Shown piece by piece: positions 16,929 through 26,787 of a DNA stretch of 32,000 nucleotides. The position numbers and the translations under genes were made by a program. The stretch is from Methanosphaera sp. GTDB taxonomy: Archaea; Methanobacteriota; Methanobacteria; Methanobacteriales; Methanobacteriaceae. How positions within the stretch are numbered: the first letter of the stretch is position 1; each line of letters opens with the position of its first letter. The stretch spans positions 46,032 through 78,031 of the forward strand of contig JAZUCJ010000022.1 in the NCBI GenBank assembly GCA_045639105.1, written 5' to 3'. The notes under the pieces were generated by a model. It had not been told where the DNA came from. It searched no databases and was given only the letters and a program-made list of their open reading frames with translations.

Positions 16929-17300
16929 CTATTTTTTTCTCTTTTCTTTATTCTTTTTAGATGAATAATAACCATCAAATACTCTTGCCTTATTAAATTC
17001 CCTGAGTAAACCTTCATATTCCGGATATTCTTCACTAATTACGATAACATGTGCCGGAGGATGAGTTTTTTTAATATTAATTATACTAATAGTAGTATCT
17101 TCTTTTACTTGAACTAAAACCGGAACTTTAATATCATCACGTGGTTTTTGTTTAATGACTCTTTTTGTTACATCATACACTTTATCCTGTGAGACTATTT
17201 TAGGTTTTCCCACAATATTTAATTTTGCGTGTCTTTCCAGATCAGCTAAAACATTTAAAGCCTTCTTATTATTCATTGCCCTTATTAAAATTAATGCCAT
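16929..17300 (-). CDS. Hypothetical protein with a Lys-rich C-terminal tail
   Basis: 123-aa ORF with an ATG start, 46 nt downstream of the 422-aa gene on the same strand. The tail is SSKKNKEKRKK. I recognise no family. Confidence 0.5.
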   Translation of the reverse strand: MALILIRAMNNKKALNVLADLERHAKLNIVGKPKIVSQDKVYDVTKRVIKQKPRDDIKVPVLVQVKEDTTISIINIKKTHPPAHVIVISEEYPEYEGLLREFNKARVFDGYYSSKKNKEKRKK

Positions 17301-17346
17301 AAATAAACTCCTAAAAAATAATAATTAAAAAAAAAAGAATAGAAGA

Positions 17347-18612
17347 CTATCGTCTTCTAAAGAAAGATTTGATTAATGTACTTCTAAATAATGCTAACAA
17401 TATTAACAATATTCCTATAATGGTTTGAATATTTCCCAATACATCAAATATTTGTGAATTTATAGGTAAATTCCATGTTGGTGCCGTTCTACCATTAGGT
17501 GCCGGTGAGAAATATACCCCTACAGCTTTAATGTTTTCCTTAACATTTAAATCTGATGTATCTATATGTTCAACACCAACCAAAGTACCACTATCAATTG
17601 CCCTATTAATTGATCTTGCTATTTTAACCGGATCATAACCGTTTCTAGATACTGATGCAGATACTATGTCGGCGGTTGCTTCTGACAAACCTTTTTTATC
17701 TGAACCGTATACGGAAACAGATGGATGATCACCAGAGACCGTGATAGCATTTTTAAGTGCATCATAAGCATATATTGTAGTTAATGGACTTCCATCTACC
17801 GGGGAAACTTGATAATTATTAGCTTCAGGGAAACCAATACTCCAGCCAGAACTACTTACTTTACTGTATGGCTTATCCATTTCATATCCTACATCGTTTA
17901 ATTGTTCCGGAGTAAACATATCTCCCGTAGTTACACCAGAAATTAAGTTAACTGCACCCCCACCGTGGTTTTCACCGGAATCTTTTGCAACTTCTTCAAA
18001 AGCCTTTGCCACAATGGTTGTTGCTGGATAACCATCCCTGATCATTTTACCAATATTCATAGCTGTTTGTAATCTTACTCTATCAGCCGTTCCTGCTTTA
18101 GGGTTTCCTTCAGAATTACGAAGGTGAATAATTGCACCTCTTGTTCCTGGAGGTACTGATACAACACCACCTGCTGCAGGCTGAATTCTGATTGTACTGC
18201 TGTTGTCAACTGTAATTACGTATACTTGGAAATCTCCTCCAACCGAAATTCCTTGTGTCGGATTTACGGCCATTAAACGTATACCTTCAAAGTTTTGTGC
18301 AACACCCACTATCTGTTGAAGTGAAGAATTTGCTTGAAGTTGCGTTAATGCCGTGATAATTGCGGCTATACGAACATCCGAAGTACCTTCACCCCCTGAA
18401 AGCAGGGCTGTCTTATGTTCTTGAGAAAATATAAATGTTGACTGGAACATGTTTGATGCAAAGGACTGGCTTCCTGCAGCACAACCGTTTGGATCTTTTC
18501 CAGAAGGATCGGTAATTACTGCAACGTTCATTGTTGCTGAAGCTACGGATGATAGTAATATGACAATTAAGAAGAACATTGATATTTTTGCAAATTTTGA
18601 ATGTCTATTCAT
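17347..18612 (-). CDS. Uncharacterised exported protein with a cleavable signal peptide and a C-terminal TM anchor
   Basis: The ORF track starts at TTG 18615. The ATG at 18612 is preceded by GGTGAT. It has an N-terminal signal (FFLIVILLSSVASA|T) and a large Gly/Ala/Ser/Thr/Val-rich ectodomain. The C-terminal TIIGILLILLALF helix is followed by the basic tail KSFFRRR. Confidence 0.7.
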   Translation of the reverse strand: MNRHSKFAKISMFFLIVILLSSVASATMNVAVITDPSGKDPNGCAAGSQSFASNMFQSTFIFSQEHKTALLSGGEGTSDVRIAAIITALTQLQANSSLQQIVGVAQNFEGIRLMAVNPTQGISVGGDFQVYVITVDNSSTIRIQPAAGGVVSVPPGTRGAIIHLRNSEGNPKAGTADRVRLQTAMNIGKMIRDGYPATTIVAKAFEEVAKDSGENHGGGAVNLISGVTTGDMFTPEQLNDVGYEMDKPYSKVSSSGWSIGFPEANNYQVSPVDGSPLTTIYAYDALKNAITVSGDHPSVSVYGSDKKGLSEATADIVSASVSRNGYDPVKIARSINRAIDSGTLVGVEHIDTSDLNVKENIKAVGVYFSPAPNGRTAPTWNLPINSQIFDVLGNIQTIIGILLILLALFRSTLIKSFFRRR

Positions 18613-18625
18613 CAAATCACCATCA

Positions 18626-19099
18626 TCATGTTTCTACATTTGCAGCAGCTGAATGTGTTGCTGTCGTATTATCAATAGTGTTAACTTTAATTACTGAAAA
18701 GTCTTCAACTACGTTTACTATTACGTTTCCTGTGTTTGAATCTACTTGAACATCAACAACATTTATTGGAGCAATGGATGTTCCAGGAATTGTTGATCGT
18801 TTAACTAATTGTTCCGCGTTTTTAATCGCATCTGAAAGCAACAACTGTCGTTGTGAAGTTATCAAAGTGTTTCCTTTAATATAACTGCCATCCCTAAATC
18901 CTGCTGCTTCCACGTTTGTCTTTATTGAAGAGAGAGGTACTATATCATTTCCTTTTATCATGACACCTGCAATAGGAACACCATCCTCTACATTATCAGA
19001 TGATGCAAATGCAACATAAGTCATTGCACGACCAGATAATATTAAAACAAATGCTAAAATCAAAATGATTAAAGTATCTCGTCTAACTTTTATAAACAA
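18626..19099 (-). CDS. Uncharacterised small exported or signal-anchored protein
   Basis: 157 aa. The TTG start is preceded by GGGTGA 4 nt upstream, and the first in-frame ATG would delete the hydrophobic segment. The N-terminus RRDTLIILILAFVLILSG..YVAFA|SS is signal-peptide-like. Its stop is 13 nt before the next gene's ATG. Confidence 0.6.
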   Translation of the reverse strand: MFIKVRRDTLIILILAFVLILSGRAMTYVAFASSDNVEDGVPIAGVMIKGNDIVPLSSIKTNVEAAGFRDGSYIKGNTLITSQRQLLLSDAIKNAEQLVKRSTIPGTSIAPINVVDVQVDSNTGNVIVNVVEDFSVIKVNTIDNTTATHSAAANVET

Positions 19100-19260
19100 T
19101 ATTTCACCCCTATTAAAGCATAGATAAAAAAAATAAGATATAACTACATTTTTTTTAATTTAACCACACTTTGTTTATAGTAAGATAATTTATTAAATAA
19201 TAGTTATATTTTTTATTTTATAAGTAGATAATGCAAAAATATGCAAATAATTTTACTATG

Positions 19261-19270
19261 AAAAAAAAAA
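19261..19270 (-). terminator. Oligo-T (T10 on the minus strand) putative terminator after the second Mur-ligase pair
   Basis: An A10 run on the plus strand (T10 on the coding strand) lies 21 nt downstream of the TAA at 19292-19294. Confidence 0.5.
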
Positions 19271-19291
19271 TGAAAGGATAATTAATGATAT

Positions 19292-20857
19292 TTATAAATC
19301 ATATTTTTCAAGAATAATGTCTTTGTATTTAAATGCTGCTTCACCGGTACATATTATCAAATCGGCATCTATTTCTAAAGACTTATTAAAACCTGATAAA
19401 ACTTGTTCAACGGTAGCTCCCAAAGTACCTTGCTTTTCATCCGTTGGCATAGAATCGGGTAAAACAATTTTATCAGTGTATAAACCATTTTTTAATGCTT
19501 CTTTTGCACATAAATAAGCATTATATGATGCTGGAACAATATAATCCGCATAATCTGCAGAACAATTTAATATCTCAGTATCTCCACTTAAACCGGATTC
19601 GGAAGATGTTGTTATGACATTAACGATTTTAGGATAAATGTTTTTTATCTCTTTCAATACTGTTGTTATTCCTGCAGGATTATGAGCATAATCTATCATT
19701 ATCTCTTTATCAAAAAGTGTTCCTATCTTTTGCATCCTACCATTTACGCCATCAAATTCAGAAATATACTTTCCTATGTCTTCAAAAGACATTCCCATAA
19801 CTTCTTTGGCTACAATTATTGCTCCAAGCGAATTGTAAATATTATGTAATCCGTTTATTTTAAGTTTAAAGTCGTATTTTCCTTCTTTGGTAATTAATGT
19901 GAAGTGATCATGTTTTTCATTAATATTTGTTGCCAAATAATCGGGCTGTGAATAAGAAATTCCGCATTCACAATCGTATTTACCGACACCTGCTATGAAT
20001 TCGTTGACCTCAACTTCATTTCCACAGAAACATTGTTTGTAAGATTTTCTGAATGATTGTGCATCAAGTCCAAATGTGATTAAATTACCCGTGTAATCTA
20101 CTTCCCTGAGCAATGACATGATTGTCGGATCATCATTATTAACTATTAGTGTTTTATTTTTAAGTAATTCGACCAGTTCACCTTTTACTTTAGCATAATT
20201 TAAGAAATCATGACTATTGGTTAGATGATCCTCTGTGATGTTAGTTATTAATCCTACGTCGGCCTTACATGCACTGATTAATCTTGTTAAACTGCCTTCA
20301 AAACCGAATGTTCCCGTTTCTAAAATACTTAAATCACCATTTAAACGGGATTGAAGTGGTGGTATGTCGGCAAGATTCCCCTGCATGTTTGCCAGGTTAT
20401 GTTCACACGGCTTTAATCCGCCGGATATTGCTAAATGTTTAAGTAACGTTGTGGTAGTTGTTTTTCCATTGGTCCCCGTGATACATATTACTGGATGAAC
20501 GGGTTCAAATAATTCAAAAATGTCATCCACGGTTAATATGGGTACTGATTGTTCTTGAACTTTCTTGTATAAATTGGATTTGGATTCTATTAATTGTGTT
20601 GGCATTATAATATAATCCGATGATGAAATAAAATCTTCCGGCATCTGCCCATAATAAACTACCATTTCAGGATAATCCCGTAATGAGCTGCCAAATCTAC
20701 AATTTTCCTTGTTGACTATGTCCGTTGCTTGAACTTTATATCCATGGTCCATTAAAATTCTGGCTATGAGATTACCGTTTACTCCACAAACACCAATTAC
20801 TCCAAACAATGCATCATCTTTAATATCAGTTATTTGCATATCGTTTACAACCTTCAT
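19292..20857 (-). CDS. Mur-ligase family protein with an N-terminal Rossmann-like domain and a Cys-rich insertion (pseudomurein peptide ligase candidate)
   Basis: 521 aa. The N-terminal FGVIGVCGVNGNLIARILMDHGYKVQATD is like the MurC/MurD N-domain. It has the P-loop ICITGTNGKTTTTTLL and DYAHNPAGI in the C-terminal part. An insertion CFCGNEVEVNEFIAGVGKYDCECG is present. The start could instead be the ATG at 20839. Confidence 0.85.
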   Translation of the reverse strand: MKVVNDMQITDIKDDALFGVIGVCGVNGNLIARILMDHGYKVQATDIVNKENCRFGSSLRDYPEMVVYYGQMPEDFISSSDYIIMPTQLIESKSNLYKKVQEQSVPILTVDDIFELFEPVHPVICITGTNGKTTTTTLLKHLAISGGLKPCEHNLANMQGNLADIPPLQSRLNGDLSILETGTFGFEGSLTRLISACKADVGLITNITEDHLTNSHDFLNYAKVKGELVELLKNKTLIVNNDDPTIMSLLREVDYTGNLITFGLDAQSFRKSYKQCFCGNEVEVNEFIAGVGKYDCECGISYSQPDYLATNINEKHDHFTLITKEGKYDFKLKINGLHNIYNSLGAIIVAKEVMGMSFEDIGKYISEFDGVNGRMQKIGTLFDKEIMIDYAHNPAGITTVLKEIKNIYPKIVNVITTSSESGLSGDTEILNCSADYADYIVPASYNAYLCAKEALKNGLYTDKIVLPDSMPTDEKQGTLGATVEQVLSGFNKSLEIDADLIICTGEAAFKYKDIILEKYDL

Positions 20858-22289
20858 TTAATCCATTAATCAGTTTTTCTTTTACTTGGTTATAAGAAGT
20901 AGTTCCTCCTATACCTAAATGAACTATGTAATCGCCCGGTTTAGCATATTTCATAGCTAATTCTGCTGCTTCATCTACGCTGCATAGTGCTAATTTTATT
21001 ACTTCATCGTTTTCTATCGCATTTAATAAGCCTAACGCAGAGTCCATGTGCAATTCCCCTGTTATTTCAACATATCCCGTTGCAATAACCATGTTTGCAT
21101 ATTCTCCAACGGTTCTACCACTTTCTTCATTGTCACGTATAGTTGTTGAGTCCACACAACCAAAGACTACTATGATATTTTCATCTTTAATAAAATCCAG
21201 AGCTTGTCTTATTGACAATTCGGAACATGATGAATCAAAGTATGCTTCAACACCATTAAATGTTCCCAAATGTTCCATTCTTCCACTTACTCCAGTGAAT
21301 AATGCCAAACCTTCTTTAATCGTGTCCCAGGAAATACCATATTCAAGACATACTGATATTGCTGCTGTTAAGTTAGCGTAATTGTATGATGCCACAGTAT
21401 CTATGTTTATATCTGTTTTTTCTATTGGATTATCTCCACATATTTTGAAAACATAATTTCCATCATCATATGAGGCCACGTATTTAGGAGAGTATTTGTT
21501 TTTATCAGCATCTAAATTATTATTTTCAAAATCGAAGTAAATTGTATCTTCCCGTTTATATGTTAATAAATCAGCACATTGGATATTTGCCACTAATTTG
21601 TCACACATGTCCAAAATCAAGGATTTTCTGTCAATATATTTTTGCATTGACCCGTTGAATTCACTTAGGTGTTCCTGATGTAAGTTGGTGATGACTCCCA
21701 GTTTTAGTTCCACATCACCCAGCAAGCCTAAAGTACCATGTGGCAATTCCAGAATAGCCAAATCTGCTCCCTTGTATTCTCCCCTAACTATGTCGTCCAC
21801 GATTGCTTCACTTACCAAGTTCCATTTCATGGATGAACATTGATATACGTTATATCCTGCTTTCTTGAATATGTGTGTTATCATGGTTGTTGTTGTGGTT
21901 TTACCGTATGAGCCAGTAATACCTATTTTATCCATGTCAATAATTGTGTTTATTAAGTCACTGATTGTTTTTCTAGTAACTATTGTTATATCATTTTCTT
22001 TAATTTGCTGGTATATCGGTGCAGATTCCGGTATTGTCGGAGCAAGATATATTGCTTCATAACCTGAAATATCCGGATTATCAACACCCAATTCTAATGT
22101 TACACCTTCACTTTTGAGTACGTCGAGCATATCCTTCCTTATTTCAGTGAATTCTCCATATTTTTTTGAATCTACAATCGTTACATTTACGCCCTGATGG
22201 TTCAATAATCTGGCAACCGGTCTTCCAGCATTTCCGGCACCAATTACTACACAATTTTTAAAGTTCAACAAAAAAAACAACTCCTTCAT
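20826..22289 (-). CDS. Mur-ligase family protein, MurD-like (pseudomurein peptide ligase candidate)
   Basis: 487 aa with the Rossmann N-domain VVIGAGNAGRPVARLLNHQGVNVTIVD and the P-loop IGITGSYGKTTTTTMI. FDSSCSE sits where MurD has DSKATN. The start is uncertain: AAGGAG directly after the ATG at 22289 could serve TTG codons 7 or 8 instead. Confidence 0.85.
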   Translation of the reverse strand: MKELFFLLNFKNCVVIGAGNAGRPVARLLNHQGVNVTIVDSKKYGEFTEIRKDMLDVLKSEGVTLELGVDNPDISGYEAIYLAPTIPESAPIYQQIKENDITIVTRKTISDLINTIIDMDKIGITGSYGKTTTTTMITHIFKKAGYNVYQCSSMKWNLVSEAIVDDIVRGEYKGADLAILELPHGTLGLLGDVELKLGVITNLHQEHLSEFNGSMQKYIDRKSLILDMCDKLVANIQCADLLTYKREDTIYFDFENNNLDADKNKYSPKYVASYDDGNYVFKICGDNPIEKTDINIDTVASYNYANLTAAISVCLEYGISWDTIKEGLALFTGVSGRMEHLGTFNGVEAYFDSSCSELSIRQALDFIKDENIIVVFGCVDSTTIRDNEESGRTVGEYANMVIATGYVEITGELHMDSALGLLNAIENDEVIKLALCSVDEAAELAMKYAKPGDYIVHLGIGGTTSYNQVKEKLINGLNEGCKRYANN

Positions 22290-22479: not shown

Positions 22480-23943
22480 TTAGATTATATCTTTTTCTTC
22501 CAATATCTTTCTTGCAGGATCCATACCCTGTGCACCCAGCAATAAGATTACATCGGATTTGTTTGCCTTGCCAAATGTTGAAATTAAGGATTCTTCCAAA
22601 GTATCATATAACTTGTAGATTATTGAATTATCATCCAATACTCCGGTAAATATTTCCAACTCGGAATCTGTGACCGTATTCAAGTTATTTACCACATCAG
22701 TACTTGTAGTTAATATTAAAGAATAATTGTCCTGTTGTGCCAATACTTCAACTAACGCTTCGGCTATTTCTTTATTAATATCTTCTCCACGACTTCCCCT
22801 GATTGCATTTATGACAAAGAGATGTTCACCTAATTTAGCGCCGTTTTCGATTGTTAAATGAATTCCTGAAGGATTATGAGCAAAGTCGTCGATGATTACT
22901 GGATTTTCCCGGAGCTTGATAAAGCGTCTTGCCAATGGTTTATAGTTTTTTAGTGAAGAGATTACATCCGCCCTATCCAACGATTTGTATTCACAAACTG
23001 CTATGGCCGCCATGATATCCTGAATAAAATGGTTTGAAGTAAAAGGCAAATCCTCGTATCTTATGTATAATTCATCCCTAGAAAATATTCCCACATTTTC
23101 TTTATAGGATATGTCTAAAATGTTAGAAGAATCATAGTCACCAAAATACATCACCTTTACATTAGAATTATCCTCTACTACTTCTGCCATTTTTCTAATA
23201 TTTTTGTCTTCATAGTTAAGAACCAATAATGTTTGTTTGTTCTGTTTTGTCAATGCCCTTGCTGCACCGGCTATTTCATATAATAGTTCATCAAAGGATT
23301 CTACCAGATTCATATGATCAAATGAGGCGTTGGTTATAACGGCAACATCTGAGCCCAAGGCGTTAATCATTTGACAGGAATGGTCATTCATTAATTTATC
23401 ATCCCACCCCTGTACTTCAGATACTTCCAATGCTATTACATCAATATTTCCGTTTTTATTATAATATTCTGCAAGTTCATCAGAAACGCGTGGATCTATT
23501 AATGTATTTCCTTCGGATTCTGCGTCGGTGTTTGTATAAGTGTTAAAACCCATATCGGAAAAAATAGTAAAAAGAAGGTGTGTGGTTGTGGATTTACCAT
23601 TAGTTCCTGTTACTGACATTTTAAATGCATTGCCCGCATATTTTTGAACGGAAGAATGTAATGCATATGCTGTTGCATACTCAATATGTTCTGTAACAAT
23701 CAATGGTAAATTTAAATTTTTTGCAACCTCTATGGCATTATCTTGAGGATTTTGTGTTATTAAACAAGATACTTCCCTTTCATGAGCTATTTGAATACCT
23801 TTTTCATTAATCCAATGCCTTATTACAATATCGTCCTTGGATGCTTTATTAAGAAAAGTAAAATTTCCATCTAATTCAATATTTGGACCATATAATGTTC
23901 CTTTTATTTTTTTAGACAAATCTAATGTGTTCATCATACTCAT
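22480..23943 (-). CDS. Mur-ligase family protein, MurE/MurF-like (pseudomurein peptide ligase candidate)
   Basis: 487 aa with no Rossmann N-domain. It has the P-loop MSVTGTNGKSTTTHLL, ITNASFDHMN (the central-domain DH motif) and DDFAHNPSGI. It lies 22 nt downstream of the MraY-like gene. Confidence 0.85.
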   Translation of the reverse strand: MSMMNTLDLSKKIKGTLYGPNIELDGNFTFLNKASKDDIVIRHWINEKGIQIAHEREVSCLITQNPQDNAIEVAKNLNLPLIVTEHIEYATAYALHSSVQKYAGNAFKMSVTGTNGKSTTTHLLFTIFSDMGFNTYTNTDAESEGNTLIDPRVSDELAEYYNKNGNIDVIALEVSEVQGWDDKLMNDHSCQMINALGSDVAVITNASFDHMNLVESFDELLYEIAGAARALTKQNKQTLLVLNYEDKNIRKMAEVVEDNSNVKVMYFGDYDSSNILDISYKENVGIFSRDELYIRYEDLPFTSNHFIQDIMAAIAVCEYKSLDRADVISSLKNYKPLARRFIKLRENPVIIDDFAHNPSGIHLTIENGAKLGEHLFVINAIRGSRGEDINKEIAEALVEVLAQQDNYSLILTTSTDVVNNLNTVTDSELEIFTGVLDDNSIIYKLYDTLEESLISTFGKANKSDVILLLGAQGMDPARKILEEKDII

Positions 23944-23965: not shown

Positions 23966-25048
23966 TCATATTATTCCAAACAGGAATAATGCAATTACGG
24001 ATACTATTAATGTTACTCCCCAGTATAACAATATAATCTTTTGTTCTGACATACCATGATAATTCAAGGTATGATGTAATGGTTCTACAGGTAATGTTAT
24101 CACATGTGCCCTATGTAATAAACTGATTATTACGGATATGATTGGAACTGCTAATGCGATGATGGAAAATATTAAAGAATTTCCCAATAATGCGGCCACC
24201 ATATAACCAGTACCTAATGCATAAGATCCCGTATCTCCCATGAATATCTTTGCAGGATAATGGTTTAAGACCAGGAATCCCACACATGCTCCTGCAAGCA
24301 CTACAAATGGCAATGATGCTACTGTGCCTGTTACTACACCAGAATAAAGTGCTGATGCTATGGATGCTATTGCAATTATTCCTGCTGCCAAACCATCCAT
24401 TCCATCAATCAGGTTAACTGCATTAATAGAACCGATGATTGCCAGTATTGCTAAAGGAATCATTAATAAACCAATTTCGATTCCGCTAACATTAGTTGAT
24501 AAAACTCCCGGGACTATTAAGAAACATGCCAATATAAATTGAGTTAAGAGTTTATATGTTTCGGAAGTTTCTGTTTTAATAGGGATTTCATCAATTAATT
24601 CTAATTTATGATCCTTTTCAACAATTTCTGCATAATCTTTTTTAGCTTGAGGTGAAGCTACTCTTGCTTCTTCTCCAGGTTGTAATGATAATAATCCAAT
24701 TTTAACCGGTTCATCACCATTATTTCTTACTACTTTTTGATATTCTTTTACTTTAAATCCAAGTAAATCATCAAACATACCAAAAATACCTGCAACAAAC
24801 ATCATGAAAACCATTATGTGTAAATAACTAACGGCATCCCATGTAAATGTAAACAAGGCCATTAATGCAACACCAATCAATATTCCAAAACCACCCATGG
24901 TTGGTGTTCCACTTTTTTGCCTATGTTCAGAAACTATAGGATTATCACGAATATCCGCTAATAACAATTCACGTCTAACAGCTGCAGTAAATAATGCTGT
25001 TACTACTATTGTTAATATAAAGATTAGTACGTCCACTTGACTAATCAT
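23966..25048 (-). CDS. MraY-like polyprenyl-phosphate phospho-sugar/peptide transferase (glycosyltransferase family 4)
   Basis: 360 aa and polytopic. Motifs are FDDLLGF, NLIDGMDGLA, GDTGSYALG and PVEPLHHTLNYHG, in the order of MraY/WecA-family motifs. A hydrophilic loop of about 70 aa (KVKEYQK..TSETYK) lies between TM blocks. Confidence 0.88.
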   Translation of the reverse strand: MISQVDVLIFILTIVVTALFTAAVRRELLLADIRDNPIVSEHRQKSGTPTMGGFGILIGVALMALFTFTWDAVSYLHIMVFMMFVAGIFGMFDDLLGFKVKEYQKVVRNNGDEPVKIGLLSLQPGEEARVASPQAKKDYAEIVEKDHKLELIDEIPIKTETSETYKLLTQFILACFLIVPGVLSTNVSGIEIGLLMIPLAILAIIGSINAVNLIDGMDGLAAGIIAIASIASALYSGVVTGTVASLPFVVLAGACVGFLVLNHYPAKIFMGDTGSYALGTGYMVAALLGNSLIFSIIALAVPIISVIISLLHRAHVITLPVEPLHHTLNYHGMSEQKIILLYWGVTLIVSVIALFLFGII

Positions 25049-25177: not shown

Positions 25178-26332
25178 TTAAGAAAAATTAATATTGTTTT
25201 TACATGCATAATCATTTACCAAATCATGGGTTAATTTGTTAAGATTTTCCCTGGAATCTGCCCTAATGGTTAGTCTCTGATAATGTGTTGGACCGTGAAC
25301 AACATATGAATTGTCACCGTCAAACACCTTTTCTTCAGGTATTACTTTGTCGGCAGGAAAATCGCCTATAGGTAATTCTGTTGCATAATAGTTTTTTATG
25401 GATGATTCAACCCCTTTGGCAGACCAGTTTCCGCAAGCCATGTCGATTAATTGGCATATAGGGTATACGTCTGTGGAAGCTGCAGTCATATAACGTGTTC
25501 CGCTAGGTCTGGTATTTAGTTCTATGACAAAATCTTCCCCGTTTTTTGAATCGTGCAAAATGTCTATGTCCATTGTACCTTCCACATCAACAAGATTTGC
25601 TAATTTTACGGCAAGATTTTTAATGTATTGGTTGTGCTTGGTGTTGTCTATTCCATCAATATTTAATGGGGCCTGTTTAATTTTTGATAATGGATGAGTT
25701 CCCTCGAGAGTGGTTTCACCCTTATATACCGGAACCAATGGAACTGCCTGATTATTCCATCGTAAAACCTCAATAGAAGCTTCCATTCCCTCGACAAATT
25801 CTTCACTGAAAATATTGTTTTTTTCGGAGACGAAGTCCAGGATATCCTCCTTTGTTAAAGCTATCTTTACCCCGGTACCTCCCTGACCTTCAGGGGTTTT
25901 CAATACTAATGGCAATTGACTTTCCAAATCGTCTATGTCATAAGGTTCATCCAGCTTATTAAATATTGGAGTTTTAATATTGTTTTTGGTTAACAGTTCC
26001 TTGGTTTCATACTTATTTGCTGCCAGTGCTGCCGTACTATATTGTGCTGCTATTACTGGAATACCGTTTTCTTTTTCAAGGGTGTCCTTCATTTTTCCAA
26101 CATCAACCAATGGTGGATCTATACCTATTAATGGTATTACTGCATCAACTTCTTCTTTAATGGCTATTTCCATAGGTTCATCCATTCCTCTTGAAACAAT
26201 ATATTGTTTATCGGCCAAATCCAAGTTTTCCGCGTTTTTGTTTGATTCCGTGATTATTGTTTCTATACCTAACTTTTTTGCATACCATGCAGCATCATCA
26301 AATAATCGTGAGCCTATAAATAATATTTTCAT
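25178..26332 (-). CDS. ATP-grasp enzyme, carbamoyl-phosphate-synthase-large-subunit-like (pseudomurein peptide-bond-forming candidate)
   Basis: 384 aa with a pre-ATP-grasp Rossmann N-terminus (MKILFIGS). It has a glycine-rich loop KTPEGQGGTGVKI and ELNTRPSGT, equivalent to CarB EVNPRVSRS. GGTGG lies 3 nt upstream of the ATG and overlaps the upstream stop. Confidence 0.8.
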   Translation of the reverse strand: MKILFIGSRLFDDAAWYAKKLGIETIITESNKNAENLDLADKQYIVSRGMDEPMEIAIKEEVDAVIPLIGIDPPLVDVGKMKDTLEKENGIPVIAAQYSTAALAANKYETKELLTKNNIKTPIFNKLDEPYDIDDLESQLPLVLKTPEGQGGTGVKIALTKEDILDFVSEKNNIFSEEFVEGMEASIEVLRWNNQAVPLVPVYKGETTLEGTHPLSKIKQAPLNIDGIDNTKHNQYIKNLAVKLANLVDVEGTMDIDILHDSKNGEDFVIELNTRPSGTRYMTAASTDVYPICQLIDMACGNWSAKGVESSIKNYYATELPIGDFPADKVIPEEKVFDGDNSYVVHGPTHYQRLTIRADSRENLNKLTHDLVNDYACKNNINFS

Positions 26333-26340
26333 TATACCAC

Positions 26341-26787
26341 CTATACCAATTCTACTAATATGTCTGTTAATTCTTCTACACTATCCTTTACTTCATCCGA
26401 TACCTTATTTACCAATTTCATTTCCTTTGGTTGTATTCCGATGGTTATGATCTTACTTCCAATTGTTTCTTCAATATAATTTATTATGAATGATATCGGC
26501 ATGGAATGGGTGGAAACGTTAAATGTATCAATTTGTTCCTTTTGAATGATTAACATCTCACCGGGACTTGCTTCAAATTCAACAGCATCAATAATAATTA
26601 TATGTGATGGACTTAATGTTCTGATTTCATGAGTGTGATTTTCAGGAGTGGATTCCGTATTTAATAAAAATACGTTGTCCGTATCCTTAGTAGTTAAACT
26701 ACTTAATTTTTCATATAACTTTTCAGATAATAATGGTCCTAAACCATCATCTCCCCTAAGAGAATTGCCTATTGTAAAAATTAACAA
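26341..26787 (-). CDS. [NiFe]-hydrogenase maturation endopeptidase (HycI/HybD/FrhD family)
   Basis: 148 aa with a TTG start. GNSLRGDDGLGPLL, IIIIDAVEF and STHSMP supply the three metal-ligand positions typical of this family. No hydrogenase structural gene is in the window. Confidence 0.8.
   Translation of the reverse strand: MLIFTIGNSLRGDDGLGPLLSEKLYEKLSSLTTKDTDNVFLLNTESTPENHTHEIRTLSPSHIIIIDAVEFEASPGEMLIIQKEQIDTFNVSTHSMPISFIINYIEETIGSKIITIGIQPKEMKLVNKVSDEVKDSVEELTDILVELV

Follow-up and report, generated by a model that had tools for sequence, protein, structure and literature searches.

A clade-restricted gene pair beside the pseudomurein Mur ligases encodes a candidate Ntn-type wall enzyme and a predicted FtsQ-like POTRA protein

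The enzymes that polymerise and cross-link pseudomurein outside the cell have been in question since the biosynthetic pathway was outlined in the 1990s. The sole published candidates, transglutaminase-like proteins, were postulated to carry out the cross-linking (Subedi 2021, PMC10117817), and their genes are unlinked to both pseudomurein gene clusters (Lupo 2025, PMC11915815). Here we analysed two genes that, unlike those, belong to such a cluster, in a 32,000-nucleotide stretch of a Methanosphaera sp. contig (JAZUCJ010000022.1; the whole stretch is called the window below). They encode members of the Mfer763 and Mfer764 families, outward-facing, membrane-anchored proteins specific to pseudomurein archaea. 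Structure prediction suggests that Mfer763 is a POTRA protein built like FtsQ/DivIB and that Mfer764 carries a domain like those of N-terminal nucleophile (Ntn) hydrolases. That the pair comprises an Ntn-type amidase or transpeptidase of pseudomurein peptides and its POTRA partner is, in our estimate, an evenly balanced proposition; that Mfer764 is specifically the cross-linking transpeptidase is a tentative one, which we hold to be rather doubtful. What the analysis itself shows is gene structure, family membership, clade restriction, synteny, the pattern of conservation and predicted folds.

Both genes lie on the minus strand, where a first-pass annotation of the window had placed a pair of translationally close reading frames. 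The Mfer763-family gene (18626..19099, 157 aa) runs from a TTG start (19099..19097, not an ATG) to a TGA stop (18626..18628), with a GGTGA Shine-Dalgarno sequence at 19104..19108, four bases ahead of the TTG. It is separated by exactly the 13 nt first described (18613..18625), which hold a second GGTGA (18617..18621), from the Mfer764-family gene (17347..18612, 421 aa), which runs from an ATG at 18612 to a TAG stop (17347-17349). As listed, the larger open reading frame begins one codon further upstream, at a TTG at 18615 (17347..18615, 422 aa), but the ATG is the likelier start. The Shine-Dalgarno sequence read for each gene is thus in place, as is the locally higher G+C (guanine plus cytosine) content of the larger gene (0.39-0.42, versus 0.27-0.36 in its surroundings; the window as a whole has 33% and its closest relatives are Methanosphaera genomes).

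Both products belong to curated NCBIfam equivalog families. The smaller matches NF053641 with 220 bits (cut-off 170, E=9.5e-66; residues 1-137 on profile positions 1-137 of 137) and the larger NF053642 with 634 bits (cut-off 560, E=1.1e-190; residues 27-418 on profile positions 1-393 of 393). Because both exceed the curated cut-offs and have relatives in 234 species-representative genomes, they are genuine genes and not chance reading frames; 459 homologues were found for Mfer763 and 675 for Mfer764. Pfam gave no match for either window protein, in line with the failure of the first pass to recognise a catalytic family, and nothing relevant at E<=10 when all alignment members (67 for Mfer764, 55 for Mfer763) were searched.

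The family names derive from Gene Cluster 2 of Subedi 2021 (PMC10117817), where both genes were described as highly conserved, as encoding proteins with transmembrane domains and as always lying downstream of pMurE. Lupo 2025 (PMC11915815) independently recovered the pair as OG0001162 and OG0001472, pseudomurein-specific hypothetical proteins of cluster A without known domains, and its predictions gave one protein a Sec signal peptide and the other a single transmembrane segment. The gene pair, its restriction to pseudomurein archaea and its status as a set of candidate wall genes are already known from these two studies (PMC10117817; PMC11915815), and the window genes agree with the families in membership, gene order and clade restriction, with no family-level difference. 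The first-pass proposal that the two proteins are candidate extracytoplasmic wall-assembly factors restates this published hypothesis; the phylogenetic profile, synteny and folds given below support this candidate role. New here are the model-based fold assignments and a hypothetical mechanism that they suggest. In the literature searched, no paper gives the pair a fold or a mechanism, or credits these archaea with an FtsQ-like protein or a transpeptidase.

The pair is confined to pseudomurein-bearing lineages. A profile built from 67 Mfer764 homologues was searched against 1.84 billion proteins, one representative for each 50%-identity cluster of about 15 billion, and returned 63 matches: two full-length clusters, and otherwise fragments or chimeras of the same family. 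Among these representative proteins, the profile search found no relatives outside the Mfer764 family. A genome scan covering one genome per GTDB species yielded 234 loci, 80 of which were listed with taxonomic labels; 79 of the 80 bore a Methanobacteriales label or a broader one (Methanobacteriota, 'archaeon'), and one was labelled Methanomicrobiales. The second full-length cluster (P0244, locus L081) comes from metagenome contigs of 59.5% G+C that represent a Methanopyrus-like lineage. Its gene order (ATP-grasp, MraY, Mur ligase, a 149-aa Mfer763-like protein, an Mfer764-like protein and a polytopic membrane protein) agrees with the account of Methanopyrus in Lupo 2025 (PMC11915815). The distribution of the pair coincides exactly with the lineages that bear pseudomurein, the phylogenetic profile that the first pass had proposed as a check. 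Mfer764 is apparently single-copy, judging from the 234 loci in one genome per species, and its sequence identity across loci is 53-94%.

The one Methanomicrobiales label belongs to a metagenome-assembled genome (L062, JBNGDB010000017.1, 'Methanomicrobiales archaeon') with a complete pseudomurein cluster in the typical Methanobacteriales order, and probably reflects a taxonomic mislabel or bin contamination rather than true Methanomicrobiales genes. Among the matches of the profile search, P0289, P0290, P0300, P0246 and P0253 consist of a Methanobrevibacter Mfer764 tail or fragment, near-identical in sequence, fused to something unrelated (PyrD-like, glycosyltransferase-like, acidic low-complexity, radical-SAM-like and GpsA-like). 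These look like assembly or gene-calling chimeras and could mislead surveys of domain architecture. We considered a shared C-terminal sorting module, given the Mfer764 tail on unrelated N-termini in P0289, P0290 and P0300, and rejected it because the N-terminal part resembles a cytoplasmic enzyme in two of these proteins and the tails consist of near-identical Methanobrevibacter sequence.

Synteny is also well conserved. Mfer763 lay directly upstream of Mfer764 in 77 of 77 testable loci, a Mur ligase gene lay within 900 nt upstream of the pair in 60 of 69, and a DUF356 gene followed on the same strand within 700 nt in 68 of 71, including loci without Mur genes. The adjacency to ligase genes on which the first-pass annotation had relied therefore holds in most loci and is lost in nine, all Methanobrevibacter (L050, L052, L053, L056, L064, L065, L073, L076 and L078), where no Mur ligase was found within 900 nt or anywhere in the available 2-9.5 kb upstream. 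The published wording 'always downstream of pMurE' (Subedi 2021, PMC10117817) is slightly too strong because of these nine loci. In the one detached locus that we examined (L078), the trio of Mfer763, Mfer764 and DUF356 genes is preceded by genes for an NAD-epimerase, a GT2 glycosyltransferase, an ABC-2 exporter pair and a radical-SAM/SPASM protein.

The N-terminus of Mfer764 provides the first indication of how the protein might work. Codons 1-26 (18535..18612) encode a Sec-type signal peptide ending in V-A-S-A (..SVASA, then T), as first described, and the next codon (ACA, 18532..18534) encodes Thr27, the predicted mature N-terminus and proposed nucleophile. Conservation, expressed as the frequency of the top residue, is 0.49 over residues 1-23, 0.82 in the c-region and 0.90, the highest of any segment, over residues 27-60; as residues 1-23 are poorly conserved, the signal peptide reads as one of the cleaved type. 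In 74 of 74 readable loci the cleavage motif has Ala at -1, Ala, Val or Ser at -3, Thr at +1 and Asn at +3. The Methanopyrus-like locus keeps both the Thr and the Asn: in frame upstream of the called start it reads ..LVSGASA, then TFNMIVITDP. We saw neither a propeptide nor an internal cleavage site in Mfer764, and the Thr stands directly after the signal peptide, so that processing would be the task of signal peptidase.

The gene call for Mfer764 in the Methanopyrus-like locus had begun at an internal Met (L081, 4372-4465), which cut off both signal peptide and Thr. Lupo 2025 (PMC11915815) also points out that the annotation of M. thermautotrophicus Delta H treats one member of the pair, together with the Mur ligase next to it, as pseudogenes. 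From these two cases, annotation of the Mfer763 and Mfer764 genes is error-prone.

The AlphaFold2 (AF2) model of Mfer764 has a mean predicted local distance difference test score (pLDDT) of 78, with values of about 80-96 over most of residues 27-230 and about 90 in the core. This region (17923..18534) is predicted to form a four-layer alpha-beta-beta-alpha domain in which strands b1-b4 are followed by helices a1-a2, strands b5-b10, helices a3-a4 and strand b11, with Thr27 as the first residue of the first strand (residues 27-33). Strand and helix orders of this kind are seen in Ntn hydrolases of the proteasome/HslV type. When the model was compared with the PDB using Foldseek, the six best matches were all engineered, circularly permuted forms of human Taspase-1 (E 1.4e-5 to 1.3e-4, probability 1.0), aligned over 259-444 columns (259-272 for five of the six). 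These were followed by HslV (E 1.1e-3) and a DUF1028 protein (2imh; E 2.6e-3, template modelling score (TM-score) 0.52, root-mean-square deviation 4.6 Å), and then by Anbu and the glutaminase domain of GlmS. All five are Ntn folds, and Ntn hydrolases were among the folds that the first pass had suggested looking for. Taken with the distribution and gene order, we found neither spread beyond pseudomurein archaea, nor a lack of synteny, nor an unrelated fold.

The order of the chain is informative in its own right. In the permuted Taspase chain 6ugk_A the catalytic Thr is residue 2 (mapped from EcAIII T179), and natural Taspase or asparaginase chains, in which the nucleophile is internal, were absent from the fold matches listed. 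Since permuted and not natural Taspase chains are among those matches, a nucleophile-first order in Mfer764 would fit, as in T1 enzymes, DUF1028 and the engineered permuted Taspase and unlike natural T2 enzymes. With the Ntn superfamily as a whole (Taspase-1/plant-type asparaginase T2, HslV/proteasome beta T1 and DUF1028), the modelled domain would share the four-layer architecture, a Thr that opens strand 1 and the succession of four strands, two helices, four to six strands, two helices and a strand. It differs in having no detectable sequence similarity, in an unmasking step that would depend on signal peptidase instead of autoproteolysis or removal of a propeptide, and in being extracellular with an extra C-terminal domain and a transmembrane anchor. 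What gives the Ntn reading weight is that three features coincide: the site predicted for signal peptidase, the invariance of the Thr, and the beginning of strand 1 in an Ntn-like sandwich. A nucleophile unmasked likewise by signal peptidase presumably also occurs in some periplasmic Cys-Ntn acylases.

Several observations weigh against this assignment. TM-scores of the fold matches are modest (0.38-0.53 on the target), the cleavage of the signal peptide is a prediction, and the equivalence of Thr27 to the catalytic Thr would follow from chain order and strand position only; its invariance is in itself a weak argument, given that roughly one column in four of the alignment is invariant. PP2C-type phosphatases, which have the same four-layer architecture, match at E of about 2e-3 in the PDB and give the top, non-significant match (5e-3) in BFVD, a set of viral folds. 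No member of the 67-sequence alignment matched an Ntn-family Pfam model at E<=10. Comparison with hhalign to a profile of the asparaginase-2/Taspase family (T2) gave a probability of 2-4% (P about 0.01-0.02), and when 31 cut points for circular permutation were scanned, the score stayed flat and did not rise at the nucleophile-first one. This profile held 15 sequences: EcAIII (checked against 2zak_A, 690 bits), human ASRGL1 and 13 plasmid-borne genes. A homologue search with T2 seeds yielded just enterobacterial sequences of about 90% identity and was of little use. The literature, moreover, favours transglutaminase-like proteins for cross-linking (PMC10117817; PMC11915815), and to these points the detachment of the pair from the ligase genes in nine Methanobrevibacter loci must be added.

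On the strength of the hhalign result and the flat permutation scan we dropped the claim of sequence homology between Mfer764 and peptidase T2 (Pfam PF01112) and kept the resemblance at the level of the fold. Permuted motif pairs between Mfer764 and EcAIII that had been picked out by eye (LSGGEG with TGTGE, AIIHLRN with AIHGGAG, and GKMIRDGYPAT...GENHGGGAV with GQKMLEAGESAL...FNAGIGAV) were not upheld by the profile test, and the Mfer764 profile searched against PDB sequences gave a single spurious match (E=2.9). Proviruses of MSTV1-like viruses of Methanobrevibacter smithii are annotated with an 'NTN-hydrolase' (PMC11375127); in the BFVD fold search, no viral match to the Mfer764 model reached significance.

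Beyond the first domain, Mfer764 has a second alpha/beta domain (codons 246-370, 17503..17877, from AF2 secondary structure) and a C-terminal transmembrane helix with a basic cytoplasmic tail (codons 386-421, 17350..17457; AF2 helix 386-419; ..FRSTLIKSFFRRR). The hydrophobic helix followed by KSFFRRR, which the first pass had picked out, is as highly conserved as the core (0.79), with G400, L406, F409, R410 and L413 invariant. The alignment also contains glycine-rich invariant loops and several invariant acidic residues (D35, D40, D193 and E214). The window protein has one Cys, also as described (Cys44, in NGCAAGS); we considered it as a catalytic residue and rejected it because most other genera have Ala at this position. 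The C-terminus (17350-17475, residues ~380-421) reads W-x-L-P-[I/V]-x-S, a spacer, the hydrophobic helix and ..RRR, which formally resembles a sortase sorting signal. The helix matches the enzyme core in its degree of conservation, which speaks for a retained anchor, although covalent attachment to the wall is possible.

The second domain holds a Cys knuckle (about 17785-17870, residues ~248-276) that varies between lineages, with zero, two, three or four Cys. Methanobrevibacter (14 loci) has four in a zinc-ribbon-like arrangement (C-x2-C ... C-P-x-C), and the CxxC...CPxC pattern is also present in the Methanopyrus-like P0244; 24 loci have three or two, and 32 Methanosphaera loci, the window included, have none. 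The knuckle is structural rather than catalytic, and an extracellular zinc ribbon would be unusual.

The smaller protein, Mfer763, resembles a POTRA scaffold that keeps its anchor more than it does an exported enzyme. The first-pass annotation had given it an N-terminal signal or anchor; the hydrophobic segment is present, ending ..YVAFASS, and of the two readings the uncleaved anchor is the probable one. Codons 1-32 (19004..19099) encode a cytoplasmic stub, MFIKVRRDT, and a transmembrane helix (AF2 helix 7-32), and among the 55 aligned homologues no part of the protein is better conserved than residues 1-33 (MFIKIRRDTLIILLLAFILILSGR..). The mean top-residue frequency falls from 0.93 over residues 1-9 to 0.80 over residues 10-32, 0.74 in the ectodomain and 0.36 in the C-terminal tail, and R6, R7, D8, T9 and G23 are invariant. 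As this is the opposite of the pattern expected of a cleaved signal peptide, the sequence suggests that the N-terminus is probably a type II signal-anchor that escapes cleavage and whose cytoplasmic stub and helix are functional.

In the AF2 model of Mfer763 (pLDDT 79 overall, 85-92 in the domain), the helix is followed by a single predicted POTRA-like domain with the order beta-alpha-(small hairpin)-alpha-beta-beta (codons 42-135, 18695..18976). Its best Foldseek match in the PDB is FtsQ from the FtsB-FtsL-FtsQ complex (8hhf_Q; E 3.6e-3, probability 1.0, 126 aligned columns), and of the 50 matches listed, about 45 are either FtsQ or a POTRA domain from BamA, TamA, Omp85 or Sam50 (about 40 POTRA chains). 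A hidden Markov model of the family, searched against PDB sequences, matched POTRA1-4 of Haemophilus BamA (6j09_A; E=1.9e-5, best-domain i-Evalue 0.003) over residues 42-75, a stretch that covers the motif piaGvivkGNdivP..ik.nv..aGf, the canonical start of a POTRA domain. The Pfam POTRA model matched 1 of 55 family members (E=0.4), and hhalign gave no signal between the Mfer763 profile and E. coli FtsQ (probability 0.1%). These data suggest that Mfer763 is a bitopic POTRA protein with an FtsQ/DivIB-like architecture and at most a putative orthologue of FtsQ. Like FtsQ/DivIB it would combine a short cytoplasmic tail, a single N-terminal transmembrane helix and an extracytoplasmic POTRA domain, and its gene directly follows that of a MurC-type ligase; in the bacterial dcw cluster, ftsQ lies after murC/ddl. 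It differs in size (157 aa versus about 260-280), in having no significant sequence similarity and in the absence of the C-terminal beta domain through which FtsQ binds FtsB/FtsL, since Mfer763 ends about 20 poorly conserved residues past the POTRA domain. An earlier PSI-BLAST survey found no orthologues of FtsQ, FtsL or FtsB in these archaea (Subedi 2021, PMC10117817).

From these observations we infer a working model, including the cleavage site, the role of Thr27 as nucleophile, the substrate, a complex of Mfer763 with Mfer764 and a choice between transpeptidase and hydrolase. Mfer764 would be exported through its cleavable Sec signal peptide and cut by signal peptidase at A-x-A, before the T, so that Thr27, its alpha-amino group now free, would stand first in strand 1 of the Ntn-like domain. 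Ntn nucleophiles are normally unmasked by autoproteolysis, a step for which removal of the signal peptide would here substitute; as other Thr-Ntn enzymes do, Mfer764 would use the free amine and hydroxyl of its Thr as the catalytic unit. The second domain, a short stalk and the conserved C-terminal helix would keep the enzyme at the surface of the membrane, the site at which lipid-linked precursors appear, docked to the POTRA protein Mfer763 as its positioning subunit. Thr27 could then attack a stem-peptide amide of a newly flipped pseudomurein precursor to form an acyl-enzyme ester. Resolution of the ester by the amine of a neighbouring stem would yield a cross-link and release the terminal L-Ala; resolution by water would instead amount to carboxypeptidase or amidase trimming.

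There is a place for such an enzyme: no orthologues of FtsI, FtsW, a transpeptidase or a transglycosylase were found in these archaea, and no homologue of the last two is known there (PMC10117817). The proposed chemistry has parallels elsewhere, by analogy. Two Thr-Ntn enzymes of family T3, gamma-glutamyltranspeptidase (GGT) and CapD of Bacillus anthracis, catalyse transpeptidation, and CapD attaches poly-gamma-glutamate to peptidoglycan. Mfer764 would resemble them in forming a Thr-Ntn acyl-enzyme and transferring it to an amine, and pseudomurein stems contain both gamma-Glu and epsilon-Lys isopeptide bonds. It differs from them in that its best fold matches include no GGT family member, the sequences are not similar, and GGT enzymes become active through autoproteolysis. 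With penicillin-binding proteins, L,D-transpeptidases, sortases and transglutaminase-like proteins it would share extracytoplasmic, acyl-enzyme transpeptidation driven by the energy of an existing peptide bond; those enzymes have unrelated folds and use Ser or Cys, whereas Mfer764 would use a Thr with a free alpha-amine.

A more specific scenario joins the two halves. Mfer764 would be the cross-linking transpeptidase, from an unrecognised Ntn family unmasked by signal peptidase, and Mfer763 a truncated FtsQ/DivIB homologue that came with the bacterial Mur ligases in a dcw-type cluster. We regard this combination as possible and on balance somewhat improbable. Were it correct, the position of Mfer763 after pMurC would echo murC-(ddl)-ftsQ, and the presence of an FtsQ-like POTRA protein would revise the view that these archaea lack homologues of the divisome scaffold and bear on the extent of dcw transfer. 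Archaeal and bacterial walls would then share cytoplasmic ligases, MraY and a piece of the divisome scaffold, with an unrelated transpeptidase: an Ntn-fold enzyme without sequence relatives, tethered to the membrane, apparently activated by removal of its signal peptide and paired with a minimal FtsQ-like protein. Mfer764 would also be a possible drug target selective for rumen and gut methanogens (Methanobrevibacter and Methanosphaera), and Ntn-directed warheads (epoxyketones, boronates and vinyl sulfones) are on hand. A clade-restricted, near-invariant, surface-exposed protein with a single predicted catalytic Thr makes the question of cross-linking one that can be tested at the bench.

The same fold and nucleophile evidence would serve equally for a wall-remodelling Thr hydrolase of Ntn type, which might trim Ala as a carboxypeptidase or open cross-links as an endo-isopeptidase during growth or septation, targeted by Mfer763. 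Most characterised Ntn enzymes are hydrolases, and an FtsQ-like partner would suit septal targeting. Yet Mfer764 is universal, apparently single-copy, strongly conserved (53-94%) and tethered by a transmembrane helix, and is encoded beside MraY and Mur ligase genes in 60 of 69 loci, which is more like a core synthetic enzyme working on lipid-linked precursor than like an autolysin. Autolysins, moreover, are usually multi-copy and equipped with wall-binding domains, and Pfam found none in Mfer764, the pseudomurein-binding (PMB) motif included. We therefore judge this explanation unlikely.

The large domain of Mfer764 might instead be a PP2C-like metal-dependent phosphatase, acting for example on an extracytoplasmic pyrophosphoryl lipid or sugar-phosphate, or a non-catalytic alpha-beta-beta-alpha scaffold. 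The fold matches to the PP2C/SpoIIE-type phosphatases 3pu9 (E 1.7e-3), 3ke6, 2xzv and RsbX, the PP2C at the head of the BFVD list (5e-3), the invariant acidic residues and the lack of a sequence link to Ntn families speak for this. Against it, the Ntn matches have E-values about 100-fold better and hold the six best ranks, and no PP2C or SpoIIE Pfam model matched any of the 67 members at E<=10. On manual inspection, the invariant Asp residues are misplaced with respect to PP2C motifs II, VIII and XI, D193 following a helix and D231 lying in a low-confidence loop. Mapping the motifs by hand, we noted a D193-D231 spacing that is superficially like that of tPphA, and rejected it, the residues being in the wrong structural elements. 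This reading also leaves unexplained why the mature N-terminus is the most conserved segment, and we know of no precedent for an extracellular PP2C; it strikes us as quite improbable.

Least probable of all, if by a small margin, is that the pair has no chemical role in pseudomurein synthesis and forms a lineage-specific envelope or division module, such as an FtsQ-like scaffold with a structural, possibly sortase-attached surface protein whose link to the Mur genes is historical: a probable promoter and terminator of its own, the nine detached Methanobrevibacter loci, the sorting-signal-like 'W-x-L-P-[IV]-x-S' with hydrophobic segment and basic tail, and a pseudomurein-specific sortase (OG0001178; Lupo 2025, PMC11915815) would fit it, but the exact coincidence with pseudomurein-bearing lineages, the enzyme-like invariant Gly-rich loops and highly conserved mature N-terminus, and a transmembrane helix too conserved for a discarded sorting signal argue the other way.

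We also examined how the pair is arranged in the window. On the minus strand the order is the pseudomurein ATP-grasp protein (25178..26332), the MraY-type transferase (23966..25048), pMurE (22480..23943), pMurD1 (20826..22289), pMurC (19292..20857), Mfer763 and Mfer764, the five upstream genes being named by NCBIfam. The ligases upstream are on the same strand, as first described, and number three rather than two; both neighbours, ATP-grasp as well as MraY-like, had been recognised correctly. The pMurD1 and pMurC genes overlap by 32 nt (20826-20857), which suggests translational coupling, in contrast to the AT-rich spacer of 192 nt between the pMurC stop and the Mfer763 start (19100..19291, minus strand). 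A run of nine T (19261-19269) lies in this spacer just past pMurC, and the spacer probably contains a terminator and a promoter belonging to the pair. At the other end, a terminator-like hairpin of 8 bp followed by TTCTTTTTTT (17329..17359, minus strand) overlaps the Mfer764 stop codon and is the probable end of a bicistronic unit; it is a consensus match only, one of four terminator-like sites found, against 0.9 expected in shuffled sequence. Given the T run, the spacer and this hairpin, the two genes would form a bicistronic unit of their own.

The DUF356 gene that follows the pair in the window (16929-17300, minus strand, 46 nt downstream of Mfer764) encodes a cytoplasmic protein of 123 aa (Pfam PF04009, 119 bits), for which we found no NCBIfam model and no PDB relative. 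Because it lies past the terminator-like hairpin, it may be transcribed separately. At the opposite end of the cluster, directly upstream of the ATP-grasp gene, is a gene for a HycI-type hydrogenase maturation protease (26341-26787, minus strand; TIGR00142, 145 bits), a position that it keeps in most related loci.

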